Source: an uncultured Clostridia bacterium (GTDB lineage Bacteria > Bacillota > Clostridia > Christensenellales > DTU072). Taken from it: 64,000 bases of DNA. The translations under genes were made by a program, and so were the position numbers. The notes under the pieces are model-generated. The model was not told where the DNA came from, did no database searches, and was given only the letters and a program-made list of their open reading frames with translations. The stretch covers positions 24,134 through 88,133 of the forward strand of contig CALVJA010000005.1 in assembly GCA_944331875.1 (NCBI GenBank), written 5' to 3'. Below are positions 21,234 through 54,739 of this stretch, in pieces. Position 1 is the stretch's first letter, and every line of letters starts with the position of its first letter.

Positions 21234-21345
21234 AACGGCGCCGTCGGAAGCTTTTGGCTTGTGGCACTTAAATGTTTTTAACGAAGTATTGTCTTACAAC
21301 GCGACACTCCACTAATAAATAAACATAAAATCGACGATGTGCCCA

Positions 21346-21476: not shown

Positions 21477-21639
21477 GTGTCGGTGAAGCAAAAATTTTGG
21501 TGTTCTGTGGTAGGAGATTTTTCGCTAATGCGAAGAAAACTTCCGACGTTAATACCCGGAGGGTCTTAGCTAGGAAGTTTTCAAAGTAGTAGCGGAAAAG
21601 ATACGCCGCAGGGCATCAAAATTTTTGATGAGCCGACAC
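21477..21639 (+). repeat. 163-bp TIR-bounded miniature element (MITE/REP-like) with a conserved central hairpin
   Basis: Termini are GTGTCGGTGAAGCAAAAATTTTG and CAAAATTTTTGATGAGCCGACAC. The central hairpin is GAAAACTTCC-GACGTTAATACCCGGAGGGTCTTAGCTA-GGAAGTTTTC. It ends 5 nt from the ybaK stop. Confidence 0.75.
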
Positions 21640-36857: not shown

Positions 36858-37931
36858 ATGCACAGATACATCGTACTCGAAAACGGAAAGGTATTCAAGG
36901 GACTCGCCTTCGGCGCCGAGGGAGACGCTCGGGGCGAGCTCGTCTTCACGACCGGTATGGTGGGATACGTAGAAACGCTGACTGACCCGTCGTATTACGG
37001 GCAGATCATCATGCAGACTTTCCCCGCTATCGGGAATTACGGCGTGATGTACGAGGATATGGAATCCGACCGCGCATATTGCCGCGCGTATGTGGTGAAC
37101 GATTACTGCCGCCACCCTTCGAATTTCAGAACGGATACGGATATAGATACGTTTTTGAAGGAGCAGGGTATCCCCGGCGTATACGGCGTGGACACCCGCG
37201 CGATAACGCGCGCCATCCGTTCCGAGGGCGTCATGAACGCGTATATAGTATCCGATCCCGGCGCGGTCGATATGTCGGCGCTCGCCGCCTACCGCATCGA
37301 AAACGCGGTAGAAAGCGTTACGCGCGGCAAAGAGGAGATATTCGAACCCGAAAAGGCGGAATACACCGTCGCTTTATTCGATTACGGCGCAAAACAGAAT
37401 ATAATCCGCTCGCTCGTAAAGCACAACGCGCGCGTGGTGTGCGTGCCTGCGGGCACCTCGGCAAAACGGATAAAAGACATCGCCCCGGACGGGATAATGC
37501 TCTCGAACGGTCCCGGCGACCCCGCCGAAAACAAGCGCGAAATAGGCGTTATCGCCTCTTTGTTCGGATATAAACCGATATTCGGGATATGCCTGGGGCA
37601 CCAGCTCGCGGCGCTTGCCGCGGGCGCGAAGACGGTGAAACTGAAATACGGTCACCGCGGCGCCAACCAACCCGTCAAACAGCTTGCGACGGGGCGCACG
37701 TTCATAACGAGCCAGAACCACGGCTACGCCGTCGATCCCGATTCCGTAAAGACGGGTAAGGTCAGCTATTTGAATGCGAACGACTTCACCTGCGAGGGGA
37801 TAGACTATCCCGAGTTCGGCGCAATGACGGTGCAGTTCCACCCCGAGGCCACCGCGGGTCCCACGGATATGCGCGGCTTGTTCGACGCGTTCACGGAAAT
37901 GATGAAAGGAGGTACCGATGCCTCTAGATAG
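36858..37931 (+). CDS. carA: Carbamoyl-phosphate synthase small (glutaminase) subunit
   Basis: 357 aa with the GATase triad region GICLGHQ and N-terminal LVFTTGMVGYVETLTDPSY. Confidence 0.95.
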   Translation: MHRYIVLENGKVFKGLAFGAEGDARGELVFTTGMVGYVETLTDPSYYGQIIMQTFPAIGNYGVMYEDMESDRAYCRAYVVNDYCRHPSNFRTDTDIDTFLKEQGIPGVYGVDTRAITRAIRSEGVMNAYIVSDPGAVDMSALAAYRIENAVESVTRGKEEIFEPEKAEYTVALFDYGAKQNIIRSLVKHNARVVCVPAGTSAKRIKDIAPDGIMLSNGPGDPAENKREIGVIASLFGYKPIFGICLGHQLAALAAGAKTVKLKYGHRGANQPVKQLATGRTFITSQNHGYAVDPDSVKTGKVSYLNANDFTCEGIDYPEFGAMTVQFHPEATAGPTDMRGLFDAFTEMMKGGTDASR

Positions 37932-40900
37932 ATCGATAAAAAAGGTTTTGGTCATAGGATCCGGCCCGATAGTGATAGGTCAGGCGGCGGAATTCGATTA
38001 TGCGGGCACGCAGGCTTGCCGCGTACTGAAAGCGGAGGGGATAAAGGTGGTCCTCGTGAACTCGAACCCCGCCACCATCATGACCGACGCGGCGCTTGCG
38101 GACGCCATTTACACGGAGCCGTTGACCATCGAAACGGTAAAAAGGATAATCATAAAGGAAAAGCCCGATTCCGTCCTCGGCACGCTGGGCGGTCAGACGG
38201 GACTTACTCTGTCGATGCAGCTCGAAAAAGAGGGCTTCCTGAAAAAACACAACGTGCGCCTCATCGGCACGGGCGCCGAAGCGATATGCCTTGCCGAGGA
38301 CAGGGAGCTGTTCAAGGAAACGATGCAGTCTATCAATATGCCCTGCATCCCTTCGGACATCGCCTCCACGGTCGAGGAAGCGCTTCATGCGGCGGAAAAG
38401 ACGGGTTATCCCGTAATCGTACGCCCCGCGTTCACTTTGGGCGGGCACGGCGGCGGCGTCGCATACGATCCCGAGGGACTGAAGGAAGTCGCCGCGGGCG
38501 GCATAGACGCCTCCCCCATATCGCAGATATTGGTCGAAAGATACATCTACGGCTGGAAAGAGATAGAATTCGAGGCGGTGCGCGACAACATAGGAAACTG
38601 CATAGCTGTGTGCAGCATGGAAAACGTCGACCCCGTCGGCGTGCACACCGGCGACTCCGTCGTCGTGGCGCCCGCTCTGACGCTGTCGGACAAGGAATAC
38701 GAAATGCTGAGGACCGCGTCCATCGAGATCGTGTCGGCACTCGGGATACGCGGCGGCTGCAACTGCCAATTCGCGCTCGACCCCGATTCGATGCGTTTTG
38801 CGGTCATAGAGGTGAATCCGAGGCTGTCGCGCTCGTCCGCGCTCGCCAGTAAGGCGACGGGATATCCGATAGCGAAAGTGGCTACGCGCATAGCTTTAGG
38901 GTATGACCTGGACGAGATAAAAAACGAGGTGACGGGAAAGACCTGCGCCTGCTTCGAGCCCGCGATAGACTACGTCGTGTGCAAATTCCCGAAGTGGCCC
39001 TTCGATAAATTCGTGTATGCGGACAGGACTTTGGGCACGCAGATGAAGGCGACGGGCGAGGTGATGAGCATTGCGCCGAATTTCGAGGCGGCGATAATGA
39101 AAGCGGTCAGGGGCGCGGAGATAGGGCTCGATACCCTGAATATGCCCGCGCTTAGCGACATAGACGTCCGTAAAGCGCTCCGCGTGACGGACGACAGGCG
39201 CATATTCGTCATATTCAAAGCGCTCAAAGAGGGCGTAACGCCCGAGGAGATATTCGAGATAACGCGGGTGGATAAATTCTTCCTGTACAAGATGAAAAAC
39301 CTCGCGGAGTACGAGGCGAAGATTTCCTCGAAGGCGCTGACGAGAGAGGAGTATCTCGAAGGGAAACGTTTGGGGTATACGGACAAGGCGCTTGAACGCA
39401 TATCCGCTCATCCGGTACCCGAACATCGCCAAGCGGTATACAAAATGGTGGATACATGCGCCGCGGAGTTCGACGCGGAAACGCCGTACTTCTATGCCGC
39501 GTACTCGGACGAGGACGAGGCGGAAGCGCATATAGACCGCTCCAAAAAAAGCGTTCTGGTGCTGGGCTCCGGTCCCATTCGCATAGGGCAGGGCATAGAG
39601 TTCGATTATTCCAGCGTGCACTGCGCGTGGGCGATAAAAAAAGAGGGATACGAAGTCAGTATCATAAACAACAACCCGGAAACCGTATCCACCGATTTCG
39701 ACGTCGCGGACAGGCTCTATTTCGAGCCGCTGACTCCGGAGGACGTCGACAACGTGATAGCGGTCGAGCAGCCGATAGGCGTAGTGGTCGCGTTCGGCGG
39801 CCAGACCGCGATAAAGCTGACGAAGCACCTCGACGAAAAGGGGATAAAGGTCCTCGGGACGTCCGCCGACGGCATAGACATGGCGGAGGACAGGGAGCGT
39901 TTCGACAAACTCCTGGAAGAGGTCGGTTTCAAACGTCCGAAAGGATTCGGCGTCACCAATAAAACGGACGCCGTCGAAGTGGCTTCGGGGCTGGGGTATC
40001 CCGTTTTAGTGCGCCCCTCGTACGTCATCGGCGGTCAGAACATGACGATAGCGTACAACGATTTCGACGTCGAGGAGTATATGGATCTTATACTTTCGGC
40101 GGGAGCGGTCGATTCGCCGATACTCATCGATAAGTACCTGATGGGGACGGAGCTCGAAGTAGACGTCATCTCGGACGGCGAGGACGTTCTCCTTCCCGGC
40201 ATAATGCAGCACGTCGAGCGCGCCGGCGTTCATTCGGGGGACTCGATAGCGGTGTATCCGCCGTACAACATCGGCGACGTCATGCGCGAAAAGATAGTGG
40301 ACTGTTCGACAAGGCTCGCGCTCCTTTTGGGGACGAAAGGGCTTGTAAACATCCAGTATGTAATATACGAGAACGAGCTGTACGTCATCGAGGTCAACCC
40401 GAGAGCTTCGAGGACGATACCGTATCTGAGCAAAGTCACCGGCATACCCATGGTGGATATAGCCACGCACATCATGCTCGGCGGTAAACTGAAAGATTTC
40501 GATTACGGCACGGGACTTCACAAGACCGTACCTTACGTCACGGCGAAAGTGCCGGTGTTCTCTTTCGAGAAGCTGAGAAACGTCAACTCGATATTGGGAC
40601 CCGAGATGAAATCGACGGGCGAGGTGCTGGGAGTCGGCAAAAACCTGGTGGAAGCGCTTTTCAAGGGGCTCACCGCGGCGGGATTCAAAATAGATATCGA
40701 CAAACCCGACCGCGGCGTATACATGTCGGTCAGGGACGTCGACAAATACGACGCCATGCGCCTTGCCAAAAAGTTTTTGGACCTCGGCGTGACGATATAT
40801 GCCGACGGCTCGGCGGCGGAGGCGGTGAGGGAGCTCGGCAGCGACTGCGTAACGGTCACCGGCGACGGCATTTATCCGCTGCTTGAAGAGGGCAGGATAG

Positions 40901-41937
40901 ACTATATCGTCAGCACATGTCCGAATACCAAGCACTATGTGGACAATTATATAAAGCTCAGGACGCGCGCCATACAGCTCGGGGTCGCGTGCATGACCTC
41001 GCTGGACACCGCGAACGCTCTCGCGGATATCCTGGCTTCGCGATTCACCGAAAAGAACACCGAGCTCGTCGACCTGAACTCAATGAGGAAGGAGCGCCTG
41101 AAGATAGCGTTTTCGAAGATGCAATCGCTCGGGAACGACGGCGTTTATATCTACGATCCCGACCACTCGATAAACTGCCCCGAAAGCCTTTCGATACACT
41201 TTTCCGACCGCAACTTCGGTATAGGCTCCAACGGGCTCGCGGTCATATCGAAATCCGATATCGCCGACGCCAGGATGGATATTTATAATAAGGACGGCTC
41301 CGACGGAAGGATATCGGGAACGTCGCTAATATGCACGGGTAAATTCCTGTACGACCACGGATATGTGAAAAAAACCGATATCTCGATAGAAACGGCGTCG
41401 GGAGTGAGAAGGCTGGGGCTGTATCTCTCGGACGGCGTCGTCTCGGGGGTGACGGCGGATATGGGAGAACCGATATTTACCCCGGAGCTTATACCCTGCA
41501 CACTGGAGGGCGACAGGATAGTAGGTGAAAAAGTAAACGTGCGCGGCAGGGAATATACCGTCACCGCGCTGTCGCTAGGCAATCCGCACCTGGTGCTGTT
41601 TCAGGACAGGGTGGACGACATCGATATCGCTTCGGTGGGCCCCGCGTTCGAGTACGCGCCCTTCTTCCCGGAAAGGACCAACGTCGAATTCGTCCGCGTA
41701 GTCAATCCCACCACCCTCAAGATGCGCGTCTGGGAGCGCGCCAACGGCGAAACGCTCGCTTCGGGTACGGGGGCTTCCGCCTCCGTCGTGGCGGCGGTCC
41801 TAAACGGCTACGTCGAAAAGGGCGTTCCCGTCACCGTCAAAACAAGGGGCGGCGACGTAGTGGTGACCTACGACGGCAATACGGTGTCGCTGACCAGTTC
41901 CGCGCACCTCGTGTTCGAGGGCGTCATCAAGCTGTAA
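37918..41937 (+). CDS. carB: Carbamoyl-phosphate synthase large subunit fused in frame to a C-terminal DapF-like (diaminopimelate-epimerase-fold) domain
   Basis: 1339 aa, against ~1070 aa for typical CarB. Two ATP-grasp halves, an oligomerisation domain and an MGS-like allosteric domain are recognisable. Residues ~1061-1339 align by eye with DapF (MQSLGNDGVYIYD ... GNPHLVLF ... FPERTNVEF ... VWERANGETLASGTG). Confidence 0.9.
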   Translation: MPLDRSIKKVLVIGSGPIVIGQAAEFDYAGTQACRVLKAEGIKVVLVNSNPATIMTDAALADAIYTEPLTIETVKRIIIKEKPDSVLGTLGGQTGLTLSMQLEKEGFLKKHNVRLIGTGAEAICLAEDRELFKETMQSINMPCIPSDIASTVEEALHAAEKTGYPVIVRPAFTLGGHGGGVAYDPEGLKEVAAGGIDASPISQILVERYIYGWKEIEFEAVRDNIGNCIAVCSMENVDPVGVHTGDSVVVAPALTLSDKEYEMLRTASIEIVSALGIRGGCNCQFALDPDSMRFAVIEVNPRLSRSSALASKATGYPIAKVATRIALGYDLDEIKNEVTGKTCACFEPAIDYVVCKFPKWPFDKFVYADRTLGTQMKATGEVMSIAPNFEAAIMKAVRGAEIGLDTLNMPALSDIDVRKALRVTDDRRIFVIFKALKEGVTPEEIFEITRVDKFFLYKMKNLAEYEAKISSKALTREEYLEGKRLGYTDKALERISAHPVPEHRQAVYKMVDTCAAEFDAETPYFYAAYSDEDEAEAHIDRSKKSVLVLGSGPIRIGQGIEFDYSSVHCAWAIKKEGYEVSIINNNPETVSTDFDVADRLYFEPLTPEDVDNVIAVEQPIGVVVAFGGQTAIKLTKHLDEKGIKVLGTSADGIDMAEDRERFDKLLEEVGFKRPKGFGVTNKTDAVEVASGLGYPVLVRPSYVIGGQNMTIAYNDFDVEEYMDLILSAGAVDSPILIDKYLMGTELEVDVISDGEDVLLPGIMQHVERAGVHSGDSIAVYPPYNIGDVMREKIVDCSTRLALLLGTKGLVNIQYVIYENELYVIEVNPRASRTIPYLSKVTGIPMVDIATHIMLGGKLKDFDYGTGLHKTVPYVTAKVPVFSFEKLRNVNSILGPEMKSTGEVLGVGKNLVEALFKGLTAAGFKIDIDKPDRGVYMSVRDVDKYDAMRLAKKFLDLGVTIYADGSAAEAVRELGSDCVTVTGDGIYPLLEEGRIDYIVSTCPNTKHYVDNYIKLRTRAIQLGVACMTSLDTANALADILASRFTEKNTELVDLNSMRKERLKIAFSKMQSLGNDGVYIYDPDHSINCPESLSIHFSDRNFGIGSNGLAVISKSDIADARMDIYNKDGSDGRISGTSLICTGKFLYDHGYVKKTDISIETASGVRRLGLYLSDGVVSGVTADMGEPIFTPELIPCTLEGDRIVGEKVNVRGREYTVTALSLGNPHLVLFQDRVDDIDIASVGPAFEYAPFFPERTNVEFVRVVNPTTLKMRVWERANGETLASGTGASASVVAAVLNGYVEKGVPVTVKTRGGDVVVTYDGNTVSLTSSAHLVFEGVIKL
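41098..41934 (+). other. DapF-like domain of the CarB fusion, with both catalytic Cys positions occupied by Ser
   Basis: ISGTSLIC stands in place of the xCGNGxRC motif, and ETLASGTGASA stands in place of the ETxACGTGACA motif. Confidence 0.7.
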
Positions 41938-42641: not shown

Positions 42642-44390
42642 ATGCATATTTTGAAGACTATTGCGAAAAGCGTCAAAGAGTACAAGCTTCCGTCGATACT
42701 GACGCCCGTATTCATCGTAGTCGAGGTGGTGATGGAGACGGTCATACCGATGATCATGTCGAGCCTCATCGACGAGTTCGGTCAGGGTATGGATCCTATA
42801 CTCAAATACGGCGCGATACTTTTGGCGATGGCTGTCGTGTCGCTGGTTTCCGGCATGCTTGCCGCGCGCTTTGCCGCGCGAGCTTCGACGGGACTTGCCG
42901 CAAACCTCAGGCGCGACATGTACTATTCGGTGCAGGACTTTTCATTCAAAGAGATAGACAAGTTCTCCGTTTCCAGTCTGGTCACGCGCATGACGACGGA
43001 CGTGACCAACGTACAAAACGCCTATCAGATGGTGATCCGCGGCGCGATACGCACGCCGCTGATGCTTATTTTCGCGTTCGCGATGGCGTTCAGTCTGAAC
43101 TGGGAAATAGCTCTCTGCTACCTCGCCGCAGTGCCGATAGTGGGCGTCGCGCTGTTTTTGATAGTGTTCAAGGTAATGCCTTATTTCCGCAGGAGCTTCC
43201 GCCGCTACGACGCTATGAACGCGTCCATTCAGGAAAACGTCCGCGCGATAAGGGTCGTTAAATCGTTCGTTACCGAGGACTACGAAAAGCAAAAATTCGC
43301 GCGCCACGTCGAGGACGTCAAGAACGACTTCACGCGCGCCGAAAAGATATTGGCGCTCAACAACCCCGTCATGATGTTTTCGATCTACACGATAATCATG
43401 ATAATCGCCGCCATCGGTTCTCAGATGATAATAAATTCGGGCGGCACCGCGTTGACGACGGGCGAGCTTACGGCGCTCATCGGCTATGCGGGACAGATTT
43501 TGGGCTCGATGATGATGCTTTCGATGATAATGGTCATGATCTCCATGTCCATCGAATCCGCAAAGCGTATCACCGAGGTCCTTGACACCAAGACCTCGAT
43601 AGTCTCCCCCGAAAACGGCATAGAGGACGTGCCGAACGGCGAGATAGTTTTCGACCGGGTCAGCTTCCGCTATTCCGAAAAGGCGGAGAGGAACGCTTTG
43701 GAGAACATCAACCTCACGATCCGTTCCGGCGAGACCGTGGGCATCATAGGCGGCACGGGCTCCTCCAAAAGCACTCTGATACAGCTGATACCGCGCCTTT
43801 ACGACGTCACCGAGGGCACTCTCACCGTGGGCGGCATAAACGTCAAGGATTACGACGTCAAGGCGCTCCGCGACGCCGTTTCGGTGGTGCTGCAGAAAAA
43901 CGTGCTGTTCGAAGGCAGCATTGCCGAAAACATCCGCTGGGGCAACAAGGACGCCTCGGACGAAGAGGTCAAGCGCGTTTGTGAGCTGGCGCAGGCGGCG
44001 GAGTTCATAAACGAATTTCCCGACAAATACGATACGCATATCGAACAGGGCGGCGCCAACGTCTCGGGCGGACAGAAACAGCGGCTTTGCATAGCGCGGG
44101 CGCTCCTGAAAAAACCTAAGATACTCATACTCGACGATTCGACGTCGGCGGTGGATACCAAAACGGACGCGCTGATACGCAAAGCGATGCGCGAGGAGAT
44201 CCCCGACACGACGAAGATAATCATCGCACAGAGAGTGGTCTCCGTCGAGGACGCGGACAAGATACTCGTCATGGACGGAGGCAGGATCGTGGACGTCGGC
44301 ACGCACGAGGAACTCTTGAAAACTTCCGCGATATACCGCGAAGTCTACGAATCGCAGACCAAGGGAAAGGAGGTAGAGGACAATGGCTGA
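42642..44390 (+). CDS. ABC exporter, fused TMD-NBD half-transporter (type I exporter, multidrug/lipid-like), subunit 1
   Basis: Start at ATG 42642 (AAAGGAG RBS). Six TM helices. Walker A GGTGSSKST, signature VSGGQKQR, Walker B LILDDSTSAVD. Confidence 0.85.
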   Translation: MHILKTIAKSVKEYKLPSILTPVFIVVEVVMETVIPMIMSSLIDEFGQGMDPILKYGAILLAMAVVSLVSGMLAARFAARASTGLAANLRRDMYYSVQDFSFKEIDKFSVSSLVTRMTTDVTNVQNAYQMVIRGAIRTPLMLIFAFAMAFSLNWEIALCYLAAVPIVGVALFLIVFKVMPYFRRSFRRYDAMNASIQENVRAIRVVKSFVTEDYEKQKFARHVEDVKNDFTRAEKILALNNPVMMFSIYTIIMIIAAIGSQMIINSGGTALTTGELTALIGYAGQILGSMMMLSMIMVMISMSIESAKRITEVLDTKTSIVSPENGIEDVPNGEIVFDRVSFRYSEKAERNALENINLTIRSGETVGIIGGTGSSKSTLIQLIPRLYDVTEGTLTVGGINVKDYDVKALRDAVSVVLQKNVLFEGSIAENIRWGNKDASDEEVKRVCELAQAAEFINEFPDKYDTHIEQGGANVSGGQKQRLCIARALLKKPKILILDDSTSAVDTKTDALIRKAMREEIPDTTKIIIAQRVVSVEDADKILVMDGGRIVDVGTHEELLKTSAIYREVYESQTKGKEVEDNG

Positions 44391-46311
44391 AAAAAGAAAA
44401 GGATCCGCAATGCCTTCGGGACCCTCGATACCCAAGGGCACGGCGATGCGCCTGTTGAAATACGTCTTTTCCGGATATAAAGCATACTGGATCGTCGTGA
44501 TGCTGTGCATCGCCGTTTCCGCTATATGCGGGGTCATAGCCCAGACGTATCTGCAGTCTCTTATCGACGACTGCATCATACCCGGCATCGAAAACGGTAT
44601 GGCGTCGGTGGCGGAGGACCTGTTGACGATATTGTGTACGATGGGCTCAATATATCTTGCGGGCGTGGTGTGTTCGTTCTTTTATACCCGCCTCGGCGCG
44701 ATAATCACCCAGGGCACGCTGAAGCGCTTCCGTATCGATATGTTCAACAAAATGGAAACGCTGCCCGTGAAATACTTCGACACCCACTCCTTCGGAGACA
44801 TTATGAGCACGTATACCAACGATACCGACGCGCTCCGTCAGATGATAGGGCAGTCGCTGCCGATGGTGTTCCAGAGCGCTCTGACGCTGACCGCGATATT
44901 CATCATGATGATAGTGTACAGCCTGTGGATGTTCCTTTTGGTCGTCGCCGTAATAGTCGTCATGCTGTTCGTGGTCAAGAAGTTCGCCGGCGGCTCCGCC
45001 AAATACATGCTTTCGCAGCAGCGCTCTCTCGCGACCGCCGAAGGTTACATCGAGGAAATGATGAACGGGCAGAAGGTCGTCAAGGTATTCAATCACGAGG
45101 AGGAAAGCAAACACAAGTTCGACGATCTGAACGAAAAACTGCGTTCCGATTCCTCCACGGCGCACGAATACGCCAATATCCTGATGCCGATACTGAACAA
45201 CATCGGCAACATCATGTATGTACTTTTAGCGGTGTTAGGGGGACTGTTGTTGACGTTTGAGGCTACCAATGTCGGACTTAACGGCATCGGCGTGATATCC
45301 GTCGGAACTATAGTGTACTTTTTGTCGGTGTCCCGTCAGATGGCGCAGACGATAGGTCAGACCTCGATGCAGGTAAACATGATAACGATGGGTCTTGCGG
45401 GTGCTGGAAGGATATTCGAGCTTATCGACGAGGTCAGCGAGACCGACGACGGTTACGTCACTTTGGTCAACGCCGCCGTGGACACGAGCGGAAATTTGGT
45501 CGAGAGCAAAGAGCGCACCGGCAAGTGGGCTTGGAAACACTTCCACAAAGCGACGGGCACCACGACTTACGTCGAGCTCAAAGGCAACATCGAGTTGTTC
45601 CAGGTCGACTTCGGCTACACCGACGACAAGATGGTGCTTCACGACGTCACGATAAACGCAAAGGCGGGCGAGAAATTCGCTTTCGTCGGGGCAACGGGCG
45701 CGGGAAAGACCACGATAACGAATCTGATAAACCGCTTCTACGACATCCAGGACGGCAAGATCCGCTACGACGGCATAAACGTCAACAAGATCAAAAAAGC
45801 GGACCTGAGGCGCTCCCTCGGCATGGTGCTGCAGGACACCAATCTGTTCACGGGCACGGTGGAGGAAAACATCCGCTACGGCAAGCAGGACGCCACCCAC
45901 GACGAAGTCGTCGCCGCGGCGCGGCTTGCGGGCGCGCACGATTTTATAACTAGGCTCCCGGACGGTTACAACACGATGCTTACCGGAAACGGCTCCGAAC
46001 TGTCGCAGGGACAGCGCCAGCTGGTATCGATAGCGCGCGCGGCGCTCACCGATCCGCCCGCCATGATACTCGACGAGGCGACGTCTTCCATAGACACGCG
46101 TACCGAAGCGCTCGTCCAGACGGGCATGGACAATCTGATGAAAGGAAGGACGGTATTCGTCATCGCGCACCGCCTGTCCACGGTCAGAAACTCCGATATG
46201 ATCATAGTCCTCGACCACGGCAGGATCATCGAACAGGGCACGCACGACGAACTCATATCCCGCCACGGGACATATTACGCGCTCTATACCGGAGCGTTTG
46301 AGTTAGAGTGA
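44383..46311 (+). CDS. ABC exporter half-transporter, subunit 2 (heterodimer partner)
   Basis: 642 aa, overlaps subunit 1 by 8 nt. Walker A GATGAGKTT, signature LSQGQRQ, Walker B ILDEATSSID. Confidence 0.85.
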   Translation: MAEKRKGSAMPSGPSIPKGTAMRLLKYVFSGYKAYWIVVMLCIAVSAICGVIAQTYLQSLIDDCIIPGIENGMASVAEDLLTILCTMGSIYLAGVVCSFFYTRLGAIITQGTLKRFRIDMFNKMETLPVKYFDTHSFGDIMSTYTNDTDALRQMIGQSLPMVFQSALTLTAIFIMMIVYSLWMFLLVVAVIVVMLFVVKKFAGGSAKYMLSQQRSLATAEGYIEEMMNGQKVVKVFNHEEESKHKFDDLNEKLRSDSSTAHEYANILMPILNNIGNIMYVLLAVLGGLLLTFEATNVGLNGIGVISVGTIVYFLSVSRQMAQTIGQTSMQVNMITMGLAGAGRIFELIDEVSETDDGYVTLVNAAVDTSGNLVESKERTGKWAWKHFHKATGTTTYVELKGNIELFQVDFGYTDDKMVLHDVTINAKAGEKFAFVGATGAGKTTITNLINRFYDIQDGKIRYDGINVNKIKKADLRRSLGMVLQDTNLFTGTVEENIRYGKQDATHDEVVAAARLAGAHDFITRLPDGYNTMLTGNGSELSQGQRQLVSIARAALTDPPAMILDEATSSIDTRTEALVQTGMDNLMKGRTVFVIAHRLSTVRNSDMIIVLDHGRIIEQGTHDELISRHGTYYALYTGAFELE

Positions 46312-46319
46312 GTTTTTTT

Positions 46320-46482
46320 GTGGCGGCTCAGCGGAAATTTTAACGCTTTGCGGCGTATCTTTTCCGCTACTGCTTTGAAAACTTCCTAGTTAAGACCCTC
46401 CGGGTATTAACGTCGGAAGTTTTCTTCGCATTAACGAAAAATCTCCGGCCGCAAAACGCTAAAATTTCCGCTTCACCGCCAC
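46320..46482 (-). repeat. 163-bp miniature element, inverted copy of 48588-48750 (4 mismatches by hand alignment)
   Basis: GTGGCGGCTCAGCGGAAATTTTAACG...CGCTAAAATTTCCGCTTCACCGCCAC. The interior is the reverse complement of the central-hairpin module. It starts 9 nt after the ABC exporter stop. Confidence 0.8.
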
Positions 46483-46527
46483 AGGACTGCTTAACGAAGT
46501 TTTCTCAAAAGATTGTAAGGAAGCCTA

Positions 46528-46690
46528 GTGTCGGTGAAGAAAAAATTTTGCTGTGGTACGGTGATGGATCTCGAATACAGACGAAGAAAGGCGGTGCCGC
46601 TAATACCCGTAGGGTCTTAGCAAACCGCCTTTCAATGTATGTATTCGTGAGACGCGCCGTAGCATAGTAAAATTTTAGCTGAATCGACAC
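46528..46690 (+). repeat. 163-bp miniature element, divergent copy with compensatory stem changes
   Basis: GTGTCGGTGAAGAAAAAATTTTGC...AGTAAAATTTTAGCTGAATCGACAC. The central hairpin is GAAAGGCGGT-GCCGCTAATACCCGTAGGGTCTTAGCAA-ACCGCCTTTC. Confidence 0.75.
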
Positions 46691-46699
46691 AAAAAAATT

Positions 46700-46773
46700 A
46701 GCTGCGGGGGTTTTCTTAGACGTAACGAAAATTCCACTGCCCTACGGAGCCGAAAATCGACTTTCACCGCCAC
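46700..46773. repeat. Right-half fragment of the 21070-21233-type element
   Basis: The ending GCCCTACGGAGCCGAAAATCGACTTTCACCGCCAC is identical to 21199-21233. It is followed by the ACGGCGCCGT palindrome, as at 21235. Confidence 0.65.
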
Positions 46774-46885
46774 TACGGCGCCGTTGGAACCTCTTGGCCC
46801 GAGGCGCTTATAAGGTTTCATCGAATTAAAGCAGTCAAAGCGACACGAAGCCATAAAATTAACATCAAATCGCGCTTGCGCCTCG

Positions 46886-47018
46886 ATCTTACGCTTCCCG
46901 GCGCCTTTTTCGCCGAAAGAAATTCCTTGGTTGCTTGGTTGAATTTCTTTCGGCGAGGCACCGCGCAAGCGCGGTGGAATTATACGGTTTGATTTTATTT
47001 AGCTCATTAGGAAGTATA
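46886..47018 (+). repeat. Second copy of the ~131-bp double-hairpin block (see 21346-21476)
   Basis: ATCTTACGCTTCCCGGCGCCTTTTTCGCCGAAAGAAATTCCTTGGTTGCTTGGTTGAATTTCTTTCGGCGAGGCACCGCGCAAGCGCGGTG... Confidence 0.75.
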
Positions 47019-47181
47019 GTGTCGGTGAAGAAAAAATTTTGGCATAAAGCGGCTGTGAATTTTTTGTTGCGGGGAAGGAAAACGGCGACGTTAATACCTG
47101 GAGGGTCTTAACTAGGAAGTTTTCAATGCAGTAGCGGAAAAGATACGCAGCAAAGCGTTAAAATTTTCGCTGAGCCGACAC
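47019..47181 (+). repeat. 163-bp miniature element
   Basis: GTGTCGGTGAAGAAAAAATTTTGG...CGTTAAAATTTTCGCTGAGCCGACAC, with central TAATACCTGGAGGGTCTTAACTA loop. Confidence 0.75.
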
Positions 47182-47240
47182 AAAAAGCCGCGGCGGAAAA
47201 GACGCGCCGCATTGTGTCAAAATTTTTGATGAGCCGACAC
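47182..47240. repeat. Truncated element (right terminus only)
   Basis: Ends in GTCAAAATTTTTGATGAGCCGACAC, like the right end of 21477-21639. Lies 18 nt from the Fic stop codon. Confidence 0.55.
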
Positions 47241-47257
47241 AAAAACATAACTAACAA

Positions 47258-48304
47258 CTAGTTTTTGCGAATATAAAAGGTGCTTCTACCCGCACCGTGC
47301 TTGGTAAGCTCGCCATTTGCAACGAGCTTTTTGATCGCGACTTCCACAGAGCTTGCGCTGAGCGACGGGCAAAGTTCATGGATTCGGGTCTTGGTGATTT
47401 TGCCCACCGAGCTTTGAACGGCTTTCCGCACCGCGTCGATCGCGGGCAGCTTTTGAGCAATTATTTCCATTCTGTCCTCAAAGTCGCGATACGCAGATAT
47501 AATGGTGCCGAGAAGATATTTGATAAACGGAGTCGGATCGTCTTTACCATCATGCCAGCCTATTTGCGCAGCGGACAGAGCATCATAATAGAGTTCCTTG
47601 TTTTTGGCGATTTTCGCCTCGAGTGAAACGTATTTACCTACCGAATAGCCTGAGCGATATAAGAGTAAAGCGGTTAGCAATCTGCTCATTCTGCCGTTGC
47701 CGTCCGAAAACGGGTGGATACACAAAAAGTCGTGAATGAAAATCGGAATGAGAATGAGCGGATCGACGTCGCCCGCCGCAATAGCAAGATCGAACTGCTC
47801 GCAGATGGAGTCAACGGCAATCGGCGTTTCATAAGGTGCAAGCGGTGTAAAAACGGTGTATTCCCTGCCGTCGTCGCCTATAGCGTTGATATAATTTTGC
47901 ACATTCTTGAACTTGCCGCCAATGCTCTTCCCCGAATGGCTGTAAAGAATTTTATGCAGTTGCAAAATGTAGTTTGCCGTTACGGGGATGTATTCGTAAT
48001 TTTCGTGTATCACATTCAGAACGTCCCTGTATCCCGCGATTTCTTCCTCGTCGCGCGTTCGGGGCATCGTCTTATCGGACAAAAGCTGTTTCAGCCTTGT
48101 ATTTGTTGTGCGAATACCCTCGATTTCGTTCGACGTTTCGGTGCTCTGTATCTTTGCCACTTCCACGAGCTTTTCAAGCTCCTGCGGCTTTTGCCCTGCA
48201 TACACGTCTTGCTTGCCCTTCGCCTCATGGATAGCGGCGATATAGGCGACCGTTTCGGAATCCCATTTTTGATTTTTAAGGGCAACATAGTCGAAAATTC
48301 GCAT
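47258..48304 (-). CDS. Fic-family protein (AMPylase-type motif) with an N-terminal inhibitory-helix motif and a C-terminal winged-helix domain
   Basis: Start chosen at ATG 48304 (GGGAGA RBS; the track start is 48337). Fic core HPFSDGNGRMSRLL matches HxFx(D/E)GNGRxxR. SNEIEG matches (S/T)xxxE(G/N). The C-terminus is wHTH-like. Confidence 0.85.
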   Translation of the reverse strand: MRIFDYVALKNQKWDSETVAYIAAIHEAKGKQDVYAGQKPQELEKLVEVAKIQSTETSNEIEGIRTTNTRLKQLLSDKTMPRTRDEEEIAGYRDVLNVIHENYEYIPVTANYILQLHKILYSHSGKSIGGKFKNVQNYINAIGDDGREYTVFTPLAPYETPIAVDSICEQFDLAIAAGDVDPLILIPIFIHDFLCIHPFSDGNGRMSRLLTALLLYRSGYSVGKYVSLEAKIAKNKELYYDALSAAQIGWHDGKDDPTPFIKYLLGTIISAYRDFEDRMEIIAQKLPAIDAVRKAVQSSVGKITKTRIHELCPSLSASSVEVAIKKLVANGELTKHGAGRSTFYIRKN

Positions 48305-48587
48305 AGCTTTATCTCCCGAACATTTTTCTTTTCTCATAAATCATAGCCATTTTTACGAGAAAAGTCAATAGGCTACGAGATTATTCTCGTAAAACACATG
48401 CCTAAATACGAGATAATGTGCTTATTCTGTCATTTTGGAAGGGTCATATGATACGGAGCGAAGCGACCCGCATAAACACACCGCGCCTGCGCGGTGACTC
48501 GCCGAAAGAAATTCACAGCAAAATTATAGCTTCACCGACACTTTACTTCCTAATAATATTTTGCTGAAATGCTTGGTAAGCAGTCCC

Positions 48588-48750
48588 GTGGCGGTGAAGC
48601 GGAAATTTTAGCGTTTTGCGGCAGGAGATTTTTCGTTAATGCGAAGAAAACTTCCGACGTTAATACCCGGAGGGTCTTAACTAGGAAGTTTTCAAGGCAG
48701 TAGCGGAAAAGATACGCCGCAAAACGTTAAAATTTTCGCTGAGCCGCCAC
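48588..48750 (+). repeat. 163-bp miniature element, inverted partner of 46320-46482
   Basis: GTGGCGGTGAAGCGGAAATTTTAGCG...CGTTAAAATTTTCGCTGAGCCGCCAC, with central GAAAACTTCC-GACGTTAATACCCGGAGGGTCTTAACTA-GGAAGTTTTC. Confidence 0.8.
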
Positions 48751-48865
48751 ACTTATATATTTATTATATAAATATTAAGGCAAATAAAAAGTAAAAGGGC
48801 TATATGCGCTCGGGGTCTTGTGGTAGTATGGGAACGTGGATACTATTCACTTGCGAGGTATTGCG

Positions 48866-51800
48866 ATGAGCTTAAGAACCGTATCGAGAGGAAAATTACT
48901 GCTTATAATATTGGCGGCTCTTGCCGTGGTGACGGCGGTCGCCGTTTCCGGGTTCTGTGCAAAGCCTGTTTCGCTTTATGCTTCCGCCGACGGCAACGCG
49001 GCGTATTCGTTCAGCGTTACCTCCGATTACACGTTCGGTTACACATTCGACGCGGGCACGAACAGCCGGCTTCCCGTCATCACCTTGCAATTCAACGGTT
49101 CCGCGACGAACTACTCCACGATGAGTTTCTGGTATCTTCTGAGCGACGACGGGGTCATAGACGCGGACGAAGACTGGGCTGAGCTTCCCGTCGGGAATTA
49201 CAATGCGACCACGGGTGAGGGAACGATCTATGTCGATTCCCTGACCGGATATGCTGCGGACGGCAGATTCGAAACATATATCTTCTTCCGCGGCGGGCTC
49301 GAAGGCGGTACGGGCGACGACGATTTTTACATAGATACCACGCCCAGGCATATATCGATCATAGGTCTTTCGACCTCAAACGACGTATACAACATCACCG
49401 AAGTCAGCGCCTCATGGAACGGCGCCCGGTACGACATGACGACGAGTTCGCCCGTATGGGCCGGCAGCGCCATCACCTTGACCGCCAGGACCAACGGCAC
49501 CGATAACGTAAATTATTTTTACAAGCTCGGCGATTCCGACCCCGTACCGTTTTCGGTTCATACCGACGCAAACGGCGATTATTACGGGCAGGCGGTCATA
49601 GGCGGCGCGGATTCCGCGATCACCGCTTACAGCGGAGCGATAATCGTCTATTCCCAAAACCGCAGCGGAACATACACGAACTATTATACCGACACCCACG
49701 ATCTATACATAAATCTGGATACGGTGCAGCCGACGTTCGCGGTATCGGCGACGGTGCCGGAGGGTTCCGGCACTGCGGCGTACTCCGAGGGTTCGTGGAC
49801 GGATAGGGCGGTCACTTTCCGTATATCTCCCACATCGGTGATATCGGGAGCGAATTACGCTTATTATACGACCGATCCAGCGGACCTGACGAACCTGTCC
49901 GAAGCCGGGAACGAATATATTTTGGATATATCCGAGGAGGGCGTTACGAACGTCACGTTCGTGGCGACCAGCGGCTCCGGACTCAGATACACTTCCCCCG
50001 GACACATTGTGCGCCGCGACTCTTCGGCGCCGGAGCTTAACGTTGCCGCCGTCGACGCGAACGGGACCTCGATAACGTCGCTCGGAACGACTCCGGGCTC
50101 GGGAGCAAGGGAGGGATACGCTTCGGGCGGCATCACTTTCACGCTTTCCAACCTGACCGCACAGCAATCCGGAAATACGGCGACGTTCTCGTACTCCGCG
50201 GACGACGGCGCGAATTTTACCGAACTCAATCCCACGAACGGACTGTATACGCTGCCCCTAGCGAATTCCGGCTCCGCCGTGTTCAACGGGACGAAATATA
50301 TTTTCAGAGTAAGTCTTGCAAGCGGACTGTACGATGAATACGCATTCGATTTTGCCATTCTGAACGGCAATTTCTATACCGACATGGAGCTCGGCGTTCC
50401 CGAGGCAAATCCCGCGGGCTGGATAAACGAACCGGTAACGGTTTCTTTCACTTTGCCCGCGTTCCTTTCCGAGGCGTTCATCGGCGTGTCCGGTACGGAA
50501 TACGATATACACGGCTACATCACCGGCGACACCTCGACCGACGTCATCATGGAAGCCGAGATATCCGATTCGCCTCTCGGCGCGGGATACAAAGTGTATA
50601 CCGTTTCGGTGGAACGCAATCTGAACGGGCAAAGTTACTCCTTCGTAATTTATGACAGGGCGGGGAACGCCGTTCGTTACGAGACCGACGAAAACGGCAA
50701 TATCGTCACCGATCCCGATACCGAGGAGACGTTCCCGCTCAGGACGGGGATACTGTATCTGGATCTCGTGACCCCGGGGTACGACGTCGTAAAGACCGTC
50801 GGTTCGAGTTCCATAGTTCTCGAGGACGACGGCTGGTCGGCGGAGGAAGTCGTTATCACGATAACTCCCGTCGTTCCCGTATCCGGCGTCAACCTTTATA
50901 TAATGCGTTCCGAAAATCAGCCTTCTACCGAGACTCTGACCATGACGGAGGACGGCACATATGTGTTCACCGCTTCCGCGTCCGGCAGATACGGTTTCAG
51001 GCTCATGAGCGGAGCGGGAAATTACGCGGATATCTGGACGGAAGTCAACATCGACTCCGCCGCTATATCCTATGTCGAACCCGACGAGCCTTGGGCGGCG
51101 TACAGAATGGAGCCGGACGGCACACGCGGCAGTGAGATAGATTATGTTTATGAGTCCAATTCCTACGGCACCGTCGCCACGGATATCCTCTTGACGTTCG
51201 CGACGAACCAGAACGCGGGCGAAGACAGGGGACATTTCGATATTTTTTATTACGACTATACTGCCGCGGGCAGTTTGAACGACACGATCGATAATTACAC
51301 TTTGTACGACGACGAATACGTTCTGAACGCGTTCCCCGATTCGTTTTTGCTGACGATGCCCGACAACGCTTCGCGCGGAACGCTCCGCTACGCGTTCATT
51401 CTGCGCTCCAAAGCGGTCGATTCGAACGGAACGTATACGTATACCGAAGTCAGGCGCATCGAGATAAATTACGACGTAACTCCCTTCCGGATAAGCGTCA
51501 CCAGCTCGTACGGCGACTCGTCCGCGTGGACGGGGAGCGAGATAACCTTCGATCTTTCGCTCAGCGATCCGGACAACACGGCGGAGATAGATATAGCGTA
51601 TTACGAGTATCGTCTGGGCGATAACGGCGCATGGGTCGGGATCGAGCCCGCTTTCGGTTCCTCCGTGAGCTTTACGCAGACCTTTATATTCGGTGGCATC
51701 AAACAGTATGTGGATATCCCCGGCATAGACGAGTCCTCGGGCGACAGCTCGGAGTCCGCGAATTTCATGAGCTATAACGGGAACATTTATTTCCGCGCCG

Positions 51801-54739
51801 TGACGAGCGCCGGACTTGCGAGCGAGACCGTAGGTCAGTATATCAGAGTGGACCGTTCGACGCCCAACGCGCTTTACGCGCTGGATCTCGGATCCGGCGA
51901 GATCGTATGGGACGCCGACGCGGGCTTGTACCGCGTTTACAGCGATACGAGCGCGTCGCTGTATCCGAGGTCCGTGGACTTCAAAGCGCCTATAACTTTC
52001 TACTATAACCAAAGCACTGCCGACTCCGCGCCCACATTTGTGGGTGACGGCGACAGTTACGGCTGGCACGAGCTGAGATCGGCGTTGTCTCTTTCCAACG
52101 CCGATACATACTGGCTGTATGCCGTGAACGGCGTCGGAGCCACGTCCGCTTTTGTAAAGATCCATGTCACGCTCGATTCCACCGTGCCGCAGCTTTCCGT
52201 ATCCGTATCCGGACCTTCGACGGGCGCGGGCGGCGGGCTCGAGTTCCAATGGACCGACGAGGCCGAGCTGCAGCTGAACGTCACGAACCTTACCGCGGTC
52301 AATACCGGAGTGTACTTCGAATACAAAATGGACGGTTCCGACGAGTGGGTGAGGCTCAGCGACACCGCGCGCGATCTGCAGGCGAACGGATTCCTGTCTC
52401 AGCAGATAATTTTCCGCGGCGACGGCGTACCCGAAGATTTCGTCATTCCCGGAAACCGCATCAATACGGTAGTGTTCAGAGTAATAAATCTGGGCGGGAG
52501 TTCGGTGACGAGCGCTTCCGTCGTGGTGCGCATAGACGCAGCCGCCCCGGATTTCGAACCGGTGTTCGAAACGCCTTCGCTCGGCGAGGTCACCGACCTT
52601 GATATATGGTATACCGAGGCAATGACCGTGACCATAATTCCGGAGGCTCCCGCAAACGACTACGGTTCAGACGTCAGAAACCCCGGCGGCGTGGAATATT
52701 TCTACCGCGTGGTATCGGGTGCCGCTGGCTCGAGCGATTATCAGCGTATGCGCGGAAATTCCTTCTCCACGGACGACATCGTGGGATTTACCGGCAACGG
52801 CGAGATAAAGGTCGAACTCAGAGCGGTATCAACCGCAAACGAAGCTTCCGTTTCGCGTACGTATACGTTCAAAATAGATAAAACGGCGCCTGTTTTCGAT
52901 CTTATCGGCACCGCCATACGTAACGATATGGACGCGGGGACGATCCTTTCCGGCACTTGGACAAACGCCGATTCCGTGAACATAGCGATAGCGAACCGCG
53001 CCGCAAACGAGTCCCCGGTGATATACACGTATTATTGGGAGAATATGTCGTCCGGCGAGAGCAACTGGCCCGAGGTGGGCGGGGCGCTCGGTACGTTGAA
53101 CAGAACGCAGATGGACGTACTGCACGTTACGGCTGTCAGCGGCAACGGGGACGGCATACGCGTGGAGCGCGTGTTCGAAGTGCTCATCGACAACACGCCG
53201 CCCGTCATATATGCCGGGAACATCGTCAACAACGTCGACGATCCGAACAATCCGTACAGATATTATATCGACCAGGTCATAAGATACGAAGAGGCGAACC
53301 TCGCCAGCGCGATGTACAACAATTTCCCGCTCTCCAACGGGCAGATAATCGCCACGAACACCGTCGACAATTCCAACGGCGGCTACGTCCATATCGTTAT
53401 AACGGACCTTGCGGGTAACACGGCGGAGCTCACTTTCTATATGACCGTTTTCCCGCTTACGGTCAATACGATAACGCTTTCCGACGAACACCGCGAGCTT
53501 TTGGATGAGTTCACCGAGGATTTCTACGCCGCGGAACAGGATCTGACCGATTCCAGACGTCAGTATTTCTCGACGCTGATATCGCGCCTCGAAGACAGGC
53601 TGTTCATGCTCGAGAAGATGGTCGAGGACTATCAGGGATATTTGAGGCAGGTCAACTCGCAGCAGTCGTTCACTTTGGTCAGCGATTACGACCTGATGTA
53701 TACCTATATTAATTACTTTACGACGGAGGACGAGCTGACGCGCTATCCCGACTGGCTGCAGGAAGAGATATTGACCGGCGTGTACTCCTCGTATTACACA
53801 AAACTCGTCAGCCAGTTCAATACGCTGCATTCGCTGATGATCGAGGTTTTGGACATCGAAGACTCCGTGGTCGCTCTGCCCGCGACGAACGTCGTGGAGC
53901 GCACCGATTATCAAAACGTGATCCGCGTCTACAACGCTTACGACTCGCTTGCGGGCGACCAGAAGGCGGTGTTTACGCCGAACCTGTACAATAAGCTCAC
54001 CGAACTCAAGCGCATATGCGAAGTACTCCTGATGCAGGACGAATCGACGGGCATCAGCATCGACGGCGACAATCTGGTAGGGGAGACCAACGGCGCAATG
54101 CTCATGGTGACCTCGTACGCGCCCGAATCGCAGTACTTTATCGAGGCGCAGACGACTTTGTACAATATGCTGACGGCGGCGGATTCCAGAAAAATATTGA
54201 CGATAAACCGCTTGTATCTGGACGGCGAGGGCGCTGAGTACGATACGGGTACCATCACCGTCACGCTGCCGATACCGGAAGATTACCAAAATTACGTTTA
54301 CTTCGCGGTGTACAGGCTGTCCTCCGACGGCACGATAACCAGGATAGAAACGTCCAGGCGCACGCCCGACGGCGAAAACGTGACGTTCACGACGAATTCG
54401 CTGGCGACCTACATACTTGCCACGACCGCCAACGTCGTCGTCGCGGAGACTCCGGAAAAAGTATACGGTTCGATAGCCGGTATAGAGATAGACGGAACGC
54501 TTTTGACCTATATAACCTATTCGGTCGTGGCGATGTTCGTCGTATTCGTCATCATAATAATAGCGGTAGCGCTGCGCCGCCGCAAATTCCTGCAAAATTA
54601 CAACCGCGACCACAAGAAGGCTTTGGTCCGCCGCGGCATTCGCAGTATACCGAAAGGCAACGCGCCGCCGCCGTCCAACCCTGCCCGTCCTGAGGAGCGC
54701 GTAGGACACGAACCGAACGTCTATTACCGTAAAAAGTGA
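48866..54739 (+). CDS. Giant (~1957 aa) cell-surface protein: N-terminal signal/anchor, many Ig-like beta-rich modules, a helical region, and a C-terminal TM helix with a basic cytoplasmic tail
   Basis: Single uninterrupted ORF. I prefer ATG 48866 (GAGG 7 nt upstream) over the track GTG at 48836. The N-terminus is KLLLIILAALAVVTAVAVSGF. The C-terminus is YSVVAMFVVFVIIIIAVALRRRKF followed by a Pro/Arg/Lys tail. No LPXTG motif. Confidence 0.75.
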   Translation: MSLRTVSRGKLLLIILAALAVVTAVAVSGFCAKPVSLYASADGNAAYSFSVTSDYTFGYTFDAGTNSRLPVITLQFNGSATNYSTMSFWYLLSDDGVIDADEDWAELPVGNYNATTGEGTIYVDSLTGYAADGRFETYIFFRGGLEGGTGDDDFYIDTTPRHISIIGLSTSNDVYNITEVSASWNGARYDMTTSSPVWAGSAITLTARTNGTDNVNYFYKLGDSDPVPFSVHTDANGDYYGQAVIGGADSAITAYSGAIIVYSQNRSGTYTNYYTDTHDLYINLDTVQPTFAVSATVPEGSGTAAYSEGSWTDRAVTFRISPTSVISGANYAYYTTDPADLTNLSEAGNEYILDISEEGVTNVTFVATSGSGLRYTSPGHIVRRDSSAPELNVAAVDANGTSITSLGTTPGSGAREGYASGGITFTLSNLTAQQSGNTATFSYSADDGANFTELNPTNGLYTLPLANSGSAVFNGTKYIFRVSLASGLYDEYAFDFAILNGNFYTDMELGVPEANPAGWINEPVTVSFTLPAFLSEAFIGVSGTEYDIHGYITGDTSTDVIMEAEISDSPLGAGYKVYTVSVERNLNGQSYSFVIYDRAGNAVRYETDENGNIVTDPDTEETFPLRTGILYLDLVTPGYDVVKTVGSSSIVLEDDGWSAEEVVITITPVVPVSGVNLYIMRSENQPSTETLTMTEDGTYVFTASASGRYGFRLMSGAGNYADIWTEVNIDSAAISYVEPDEPWAAYRMEPDGTRGSEIDYVYESNSYGTVATDILLTFATNQNAGEDRGHFDIFYYDYTAAGSLNDTIDNYTLYDDEYVLNAFPDSFLLTMPDNASRGTLRYAFILRSKAVDSNGTYTYTEVRRIEINYDVTPFRISVTSSYGDSSAWTGSEITFDLSLSDPDNTAEIDIAYYEYRLGDNGAWVGIEPAFGSSVSFTQTFIFGGIKQYVDIPGIDESSGDSSESANFMSYNGNIYFRAVTSAGLASETVGQYIRVDRSTPNALYALDLGSGEIVWDADAGLYRVYSDTSASLYPRSVDFKAPITFYYNQSTADSAPTFVGDGDSYGWHELRSALSLSNADTYWLYAVNGVGATSAFVKIHVTLDSTVPQLSVSVSGPSTGAGGGLEFQWTDEAELQLNVTNLTAVNTGVYFEYKMDGSDEWVRLSDTARDLQANGFLSQQIIFRGDGVPEDFVIPGNRINTVVFRVINLGGSSVTSASVVVRIDAAAPDFEPVFETPSLGEVTDLDIWYTEAMTVTIIPEAPANDYGSDVRNPGGVEYFYRVVSGAAGSSDYQRMRGNSFSTDDIVGFTGNGEIKVELRAVSTANEASVSRTYTFKIDKTAPVFDLIGTAIRNDMDAGTILSGTWTNADSVNIAIANRAANESPVIYTYYWENMSSGESNWPEVGGALGTLNRTQMDVLHVTAVSGNGDGIRVERVFEVLIDNTPPVIYAGNIVNNVDDPNNPYRYYIDQVIRYEEANLASAMYNNFPLSNGQIIATNTVDNSNGGYVHIVITDLAGNTAELTFYMTVFPLTVNTITLSDEHRELLDEFTEDFYAAEQDLTDSRRQYFSTLISRLEDRLFMLEKMVEDYQGYLRQVNSQQSFTLVSDYDLMYTYINYFTTEDELTRYPDWLQEEILTGVYSSYYTKLVSQFNTLHSLMIEVLDIEDSVVALPATNVVERTDYQNVIRVYNAYDSLAGDQKAVFTPNLYNKLTELKRICEVLLMQDESTGISIDGDNLVGETNGAMLMVTSYAPESQYFIEAQTTLYNMLTAADSRKILTINRLYLDGEGAEYDTGTITVTLPIPEDYQNYVYFAVYRLSSDGTITRIETSRRTPDGENVTFTTNSLATYILATTANVVVAETPEKVYGSIAGIEIDGTLLTYITYSVVAMFVVFVIIIIAVALRRRKFLQNYNRDHKKALVRRGIRSIPKGNAPPPSNPARPEERVGHEPNVYYRKK

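Follow-up and report, generated by a model that had tools for sequence, protein, structure and literature searches.

REPINs, hairpin-forming doublets of REP sequences, are mobilised by RAYT transposases (Bertels and Rainey 2011, PMC3116915). Compensatory changes on both sides of their hairpins are common, and REPINs are predicted to fold either in ssDNA or in mRNA (PMC3116915). The Firmicutes are not among the phyla for which the cited survey of REP sequences lists GTAG and CGTC REPs. In the Bacillus cereus group, the ~155-bp element bcr1 (Økstad 2004 and Klevan 2007, summarised in PMC3184786) shows compensatory changes at the RNA level, and some of its copies have lost stability (PMC3184786). 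Other described elements of this kind include ERIC/IRU (127 bp), YPAL/RU-2 (~168 bp) and the Chunjie-type hairpin MITEs (reviewed in PMC3184786); ERIC-type repeats can be co-transcribed with genes and alter mRNA stability (PMC3184786).

The DNA analyzed here, a 64-kb stretch from an uncultured Clostridia bacterium (hereafter, the window), contains five copies of a 163-nt element. The host carries Spo0A and a GerA spore-germination operon and is therefore spore-forming; its G+C content is ~54%, and its ArgG shares 88% identity with proteins labelled "MAG: Clostridia bacterium". The sequences quoted in a first-pass annotation of this DNA were found where that annotation had placed them, and five occurrences of the loop core TAATACCYGNAGGGTCTTA were counted in the window, where none was expected. 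The copies are designated A (21477-21639, + strand), B (46320-46482, - strand), C (46528-46690, + strand), D (47019-47181, + strand) and E (48588-48750, + strand). They align without gaps at a mean column identity of 84%, copy C being the outlier. Copies A, B and E belong to one subfamily (subfamily 1), of which B (183.5 bits with the covariance model, CM) and E are intact and 95% identical to each other, while A carries compensated differences relative to both. Copy C (155.8 bits) belongs to subfamily 2, and copy D is a chimera, composed of a 5' arm of a different type (termed "Y"; ~47019-47073) and the apex and 3' arm of subfamily 1.

In RNA folding, each copy forms a single long hairpin of ~65 pairs. 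The minimum free energy (MFE) of the intact copies ranges from -84 to -98 kcal/mol (z ~ -13), the values for copies C and E being -89 (z -14.3) and -95.2 kcal/mol (z -12.7), respectively. Copy C may serve to illustrate the anatomy. A basal stem (46528-46535/46683-46690) is followed by a tandem G·A (46536-46537/46681-46682), a long stem (46538-46562/46656-46680) and an internal loop (46563-46568/46651-46655). Above these lie a stem (46569-46581/46638-46650), a second internal loop (46582-46585/46634-46637), a further stem (46586-46595/46624-46633) and the apical stem (46599-46608/46612-46621), closed by a triloop (46609-46611). At the apex, TAATACCC pairs with GGGTCTTA with one U/C mismatch, and a GNA triloop lies between them. 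The "central loop" of the first-pass annotation is therefore the top of the hairpin, i.e., a stem (TAATACCC/GGGTCTTA) with its triloop.

Searches with the termini recovered relatives that share the basal stem GTGKCGGTGAA...TGAGCCGMCAC and have a different interior. One of these, termed ALT (21070-21233, - strand; 164 nt; CM score 155.4 bits), is a full copy of a further subfamily (subfamily 4) with the same architecture, other stems and the apex CAATACTCTTGCGGTATTG, and it aligns column for column with the 163-nt copies. The window also contains a 37-nt stub (18105-18141, + strand; CM score 29.2 bits), in which ALT-type basal ends are joined by internal deletion, and an ALT-like fragment (46690-46773, - strand), consisting of a 5' arm with an ALT-like outer part (GTGGCGGTGAAAGTCGATTTTCGG...) that is cut at the apex. 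A "Y" 3'-arm fragment (47184-47240, + strand), the partner of the 5' arm of copy D, is followed by an A-run, with the stop codon of a Fic gene 18 nt away; the same sequence is found at the end of contig L051. Finally, a 27-nt 5'-end fragment (GTGTCGGTGAAGCTATAATTTTGCTGT; 48515-48541, - strand) is joined to a truncated unit of the spacer repeat described below.

Additional copies were fetched from ENA metagenome contigs (designated by L numbers), using the spurious ORFs that lie over the repeats as protein queries. Copies F (L015:193-356) and G (L049:6581-6730, with an internal 14-nt deletion) constitute subfamily 3, and both carry the apex TAATACTCTTGCGGTCTTA. Copies H (L047:10107-10220) and I (L050:5136-5249) are of the C type and carry deletions of the 3' and the 5' arm, respectively. 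A decayed ALT-type copy (L050:5488-5639), a second 37-nt stub (L050:6852-6888) and end fragments in L051 and L052 complete the set. The subfamilies recur across independent metagenome samples, and the copies fall into ~5 lineages: (1) A, B and E; (2) C, H and I; (3) F and G; (4) ALT; and (5) the "Y" arms.

Among these at least four or five subfamilies, the basal stem GTGKCGGT...CGMCAC is common, and the stems between the conserved boxes differ in sequence yet stay complementary. The features kept across subfamilies are the tandem G·A internal loop (columns 9-10 with 155-156), which is invariant, an AAATTTT box in each arm, a GAAGAAA/TTTTC box, a GA at columns 40-41 facing G125, and the small apical stem-loop with U77 unpaired. 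The K-turn was considered as a known motif and rejected, since the tandem G·A lacks a 3-nt bulge. Retention of the loop core, as proposed in the first-pass annotation, holds for subfamilies 1 and 2 only, the other subfamilies carrying TAATACTCTTGCGGTCTTA or CAATACTCTTGCGGTATTG in its place. Likewise, of the four copies said to share one central stem, the perfect GAAAACTTCC/GGAAGTTTTC pairing is confined to A, B and E, whereas D carries GAAAACGGCG on its 5' side.

The substitution of stem sequence on both sides was examined with the enlarged set. Among the seven full copies (RNAalifold), 35 of the 65 pairs are changed on both sides. With ten copies, 94.6% of the cells are paired (82.6% in shuffled alignments), and there are 35 double-change pairs against 15.3 in the shuffles, a number that none of 500 shuffles reached. 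The shuffle control ignores the relatedness of the copies, which comprise ~10 informative sequences from ~5 lineages; the structure is further supported by the number of distinct pair types and by a control with slid registers, where 39-49% of the cells are paired and 6-10 pairs show double changes. In copy C the stem is indeed replaced on both sides with pairing kept, and the outer-arm covariation noted between copies A (21477-21639) and E (48588-48750) is present. Compensated differences occur within lineages as well; at pairs 4/161, 25/140 and 29/136, for instance, copy A departs from B and E. The observation of compensated stems is thus real; with more copies aligned its support persists, and it is stronger than could be seen in the first-pass annotation.

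Selection on structure was the meaning originally given to this pattern. For one strand of the element the claim stands; its second part, that covariation is the signature of a functional RNA, does not, since mobile hairpin repeats show the same. As this signature is documented for such repeats, covariation alone identifies no RNA gene: it is not diagnostic of functional RNA, and it constitutes no demonstration of a new RNA gene.

The two strands of the element are not equivalent. In the orientation that starts with GTGKCGGTGAAG (hereafter, the sense strand), the aligned copies contain 54 G·U cells and 3 A·C cells or, counted by position, 21 versus 3 (binomial p = 0.0003); the only three A·C cells belong to copy D, which has 12 non-standard pairs in all. 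The sense strand is more stable by 18-32 kcal/mol in all eight copies of at least 150 nt (in copy B, -98.1 versus -75.5 kcal/mol), and with DNA parameters copy C likewise gives -46.4 kcal/mol for the sense and -36.0 kcal/mol for the antisense strand. The same strand of the element is favored whatever its orientation in the genome, as in B (- strand) and E (+ strand). A duplex palindrome, or mutation that symmetrizes its arms, would be blind to strand; since the strands differ, the hairpin matters in single-stranded form. The element therefore folds as a single strand, either RNA or ssDNA, between which the strand test cannot separate.

This asymmetry bears directly on the possibility that the element is simply a palindrome in DNA whose symmetry is maintained by mutation (hairpin template switching with quasi-palindrome correction, or gene conversion between the arms) with no selection on any single-stranded form. 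We consider this quite improbable. The element is indeed palindromic over almost its whole length, unrelated hairpin repeats of the same organism also show matched changes, and the chimeras attest to recombination among copies. Template switching, however, is strand-blind and yields perfect Watson-Crick pairs; it predicts neither the 54 G·U versus 3 A·C cells nor the same favored strand in copies B and E. Correction of this kind would, moreover, erase the tandem G·A, the apical U/C mismatch and the asymmetric internal loops.

Two other hairpin repeat families were observed in this organism. At 17760-17930 (- strand), upstream of the gene for an LRR protein (15506-17731), there is a tandem array in which every unit consists of a constant TTATTTCACAA and a short perfect hairpin. 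The window array has five units, the hairpin sequence varying from unit to unit. Further arrays lie at L049:6735-6880, L015:612-650 and L013:~770-920 and 2560-2660; in L049 the first three hairpins of the window array recur in the same order, with small compensated differences. The array could represent successive protein-binding sites or terminator-like hairpins. The second family, cgcaaacRcaaaggcgRcatacg...cgcctttgYgtttgcg, is found at L049:6268-6325, L051:303-352 and L052:385-436, with matched changes across copies (caaagg/cctttg versus caacgg/ccgttg). Compensated hairpin repeats are general in the host organism.

A second alternative, which we hold to be possible though doubtful, is that the element is a functional structured RNA whose dispersal is secondary. 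It might act in cis within a UTR, as a stabilizer of mRNA 3' ends, a processing site for RNase III or RNase E, or a barrier to read-through between transcription units; otherwise, it might be an independent small RNA of ~163 nt, in which the tandem G·A loops and the apex bind a protein. Strand-specific pairing with many G·U pairs would be expected of such an RNA, as would an unvarying tandem G·A (columns 9-10/155-156), a motif by which RNAs typically bind proteins, and purine conservation in the remaining internal loops. All three copies situated between co-directional genes (F in L015, H in L047 and I in L050) are in the sense orientation, and both ERIC and bcr1 are known to act or fold at the RNA level.

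The surroundings of the element argue against an RNA role. No conserved promoter was detected upstream of the element and no conserved terminator downstream; in place of a U-tract, the sense strand has an A-run directly after it. The elements with a stop codon less than 20 nt away number four (A, B, ALT and the fragment 47184-47240), and each of them is antisense to the gene that this codon ends. Thus, the 3' end of copy A, with its A-run, is 6 nt from the stop codon of a convergent gene (21645-22145, - strand), and that of copy B, again with the A-run, lies 9 nt past the stop codon of a convergent ABC transporter gene (44383-46311); copy E occupies a divergent region, ahead of the next gene on the + strand. 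In the fold itself, conservation is no higher in the unpaired than in the paired columns (0.81 versus 0.78). Many copies are truncated or chimeric, and the family is confined to one lineage. Rfam 15 gave no match at the gathering score over the 64 kb; in a scan of 46250-48850 at a permissive E-value, only three chance-level matches (E >= 2.8) were obtained. No tRNA or tmRNA was found.

Other assignments were considered and rejected. A coding function was dismissed because the reading frames are broken and shift between copies. An intrinsic terminator does not agree with the AAAAA that follows the sense strand or with the antisense T-run, which precedes the hairpin, and the terminator scan misses the elements. 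A retron was set aside, since no RT gene lies nearby. Next to copy A, a unit of ATTTCAC plus a palindrome (ttatttcac ttcgtctcgagacgcgtctcgagacgaa; 21645-21690) spans the stop codon of the convergent gene and the ~14 codons before it; the gene encodes a protein with a tRNA_edit domain, the C-terminus of which appears to come from a repeat element.

In the first-pass annotation the element was contrasted with "decaying junk". This opposition does not hold, as many copies are truncated, internally deleted, reduced to stubs or chimeric. The damage is of the type seen in palindromes, including arm deletions (H and I), an internal deletion (G) and the 37-nt stubs (18105-18141 and L050:6852-6888); the fragments at 46690-46773, 47184-47240 and 48515-48541 are further decay products. 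In copy D, pairing of the 5' arm with its own 3' arm was rejected, since the downstream fragment 47184-47240 pairs with it better (-64.7 kcal/mol and continuous, compared to -51.8 kcal/mol and gapped). These energies indicate that an older "Y" element was interrupted by a subfamily 1 apex and 3' arm with its A-run. Similarly, copy C with its A-run begins exactly where the ALT-like element at 46690-46773 is cut at the apex.

The repeats are always intergenic and occur in mosaics with other repeat units. BIMEs of E. coli are likewise intergenic mosaics, in which several short repeat modules appear in variable combinations and orientations. The mosaics described here resemble them in this respect, whereas their modules are much longer (the 163-nt hairpins and a spacer of 210 nt) and unrelated in sequence. 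The spacer unit (~210 nt) always adjoins the hairpins and is present at 21236-21447 (+ strand) and, between the ALT-like fragment (46690-46773) and copy D, at 46776-46987 (+ strand); it is also found in other contigs (L013:928-1140 and L015:~395-606). It has hairpins of its own, one a 15-bp CGCCGAAAGAAATTC/GAATTTCTTTCGGCG and the other the GC-rich CACCGCGCGAGCGCGGTG, and in many ENA metagenome contigs it has been annotated with spurious ORFs of 47-169 aa (21 distinct products). ALT (-), the spacer and a 163-nt hairpin (+) combine into a composite, which at 21070-21639 is ~570 bp long and made up of ALT, the spacer and copy A. The composite recurs at 46690-47181 and in L050, and its spacer and 163-nt hairpin part recurs in L015 and L047. 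The latter contig, which belongs to the same or a closely related organism, also carries a complete type I-C CRISPR-Cas operon (L047:125-7691; cas3, cas5d, csd1, cas7, cas4, cas1 and cas2), ~2.4 kb from the mosaic repeat cluster.

A spacer-end fragment (48461-48515, - strand) is inverted with respect to 46940-46994, and the two flank the Fic gene. The Fic module (47251-48515; gene at 47258-48337, - strand) is 99.6% identical in another sample (L013:1093-2357 and L014), and its flanks differ wholly between the samples, from 7 nt past the stop codon on one side and beyond 48515 on the other. In the other sample the flanks carry a different arrangement of the same repeats, and in both contexts the inverted spacer ends (TGAATTTCTTTCGGCGAG.CACCGCGC..GCGCGGTG; 46940-46994 and 48461-48515) bracket the gene. 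The outer flanks of the module appear swapped, while L013:1-927 has no match in the window. The arrangement suggests that the Fic module may have been inverted or relocated by recombination between repeats. Upstream of the module in L013 there is a different gene, for a 113-aa protein of the 23S_rRNA_IVP family, situated in a part of the contig that is unmatched in the window.

The Fic module raises the question of whether the hairpins and spacers are site-specific recombination sites, attC-like or dif-like, that are folded as ssDNA and bound modules of this kind. The attC sites are the classic case in which structure is conserved without sequence. The near-identity of the module, its different flanks and the inverted spacer ends on both sides in both samples agree with this proposal, yet we consider it very improbable indeed. 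The termini here are GTGKCGG/CCGMCAC and not the RYYYAAC/GTTRRRY core sites of attC, and no integrase or recombinase was seen near the elements among the ORFs scanned. Most copies, furthermore, flank ordinary housekeeping operons, and several adjoin one another without genes between them.

A gene that might mobilize the repeats was not seen in the window. Among the window ORFs scanned there is no transposase, integrase or recombinase, only housekeeping families; no RAYT transposase is present among the genes called in the fetched loci; and neither the window nor ~70 kb of related contigs revealed a parent IS that shares the ends of the element. Two further ORFs of the window are unusual in themselves. 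The first (37918-41937) is a single ORF of 1339 aa that combines the large chain of carbamoyl-phosphate synthase with a C-terminal pair of diaminopimelate epimerase (DapF) domains, and is either an unusual fusion or the result of a missed stop codon or frameshift. The second (48836-54739; 1967 aa) has no Pfam match.

The junctions of copies A-E, F and G, of ALT and of the stub show no direct repeat that would represent a target-site duplication. On the 3' side there is usually an A-run, and the 5' flank is a conserved linker. No clean pair of filled and empty sites was obtained, the orthologous contigs found being identical to the window, and 10 kb recovered beyond the window through a neighboring protein contain no copies.

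The distribution of the family was assessed in several public collections. In 185,579 GTDB species genomes, the loop motif gave 12 single occurrences in unrelated phyla, approximately the chance estimate, and none of them matched the covariance model. The loop core had no match in JGI metagenomes, whereas the 5'-end pattern had 30, none of which fitted the model beyond E = 0.48; the best of these (L040) proved to be unrelated on inspection. IMG/VR contained neither the loop nor the 5'-end motif, and a BLAST search with copy E against plasmids and phages produced no match. Absence from public collections is thus defined by two short motifs or by BLAST, and by this measure the hairpin family is lineage-specific, with a narrow distribution.

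Compared with REPINs, the family shares multiple extragenic copies that form long hairpins, compensatory changes, remnants in the form of singlets or stubs, and clustering. The arms here, however, contain no palindrome of their own except AAATTT, and together they form one continuous hairpin of ~65 bp. The 163-nt type lacks a GTAG or CGTC tag, its 5' flanks being TATA, CCTA, TCCT, TCCC and GTCA; CGTC is found solely in front of two elements, the 37-nt stub at 18105 and the copy at L049:6581. No RAYT gene was seen among the ORFs scanned, and the host belongs to the Clostridia. The likeness to bcr1 comprises a Firmicutes host, a similar size, the non-coding character, a non-conserved genomic distribution, compensatory changes that keep the structure, and destabilized copies. 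Unlike the present single extended hairpin, bcr1 is cruciform-like, with two independent stem-loops and flanking 5-bp direct repeats; there is no target duplication here, and the two are not similar in sequence. Like ERIC, YPAL and Chunjie, the elements are imperfect palindromes of 100-170 bp, intergenic, often just downstream of genes, and very stable as RNA hairpins. No sequence relationship to these repeats was found; their hosts are Proteobacteria, and the present elements lack target duplications and are antisense next to stop codons. The terminal inverted repeats GTGKCGG...CCGMCAC and the pairing of the whole length are reminiscent of MITEs, again in the absence of a target-site duplication. 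The family therefore works like REP/REPIN/ERIC/bcr1-type repeats but is separate from them, and in the strict sense it belongs to none of the named families.

Taken together, we put at roughly 60% the probability that these elements constitute a new, lineage-specific family of non-coding, long-hairpin repeats of the REP/REPIN/ERIC/bcr1-like kind, in an uncultured spore-forming Clostridia host, with a single-strand fold that is needed in their propagation or use. Mobility is inferred, as are a single-stranded intermediate and selection acting on the element as such. Copies would be spread or exchanged at the DNA level, and one defined strand would pass through a single-stranded, folded stage, either as an ssDNA intermediate with a trans-acting enzyme or as a transcript. 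Only lineages that keep the hairpin would leave descendants, which would produce the covariation between subfamilies, with G·U (G·T) tolerated and A·C not. After insertion, the copies would decay as palindromes typically do, by deletion and recombination. An RNA role would account equally well for the conservation of the tandem G·A loops and for the sense orientation shared by copies F, H and I.

A bolder extension of the mobile-repeat reading, which we rate as unlikely, would be a REPIN-like "replicator" system in Clostridia, in which the long hairpins are propagated, by way of a strand-specific single-stranded intermediate, by an enzyme other than a classical RAYT, for which the G·A loops and the apex would be recognition sites. 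The hairpins or their transcripts may also have been co-opted by the host, and might act, e.g., as barriers or processing sites between transcription units.

For scans of genomes, the family carries a caution, in that strong covariation in a repeated hairpin can also come from mobile repeats. The asymmetry between G·U and A·C reveals which strand folds, and the subfamilies constitute natural "compensatory mutants" of one architecture. The mobile-repeat reading would extend REP/REPIN/ERIC-like elements to an uncultured, gut-type lineage of Clostridia, and should a partner enzyme or an RNA role be found, the family would provide a Gram-positive example of how such elements persist.
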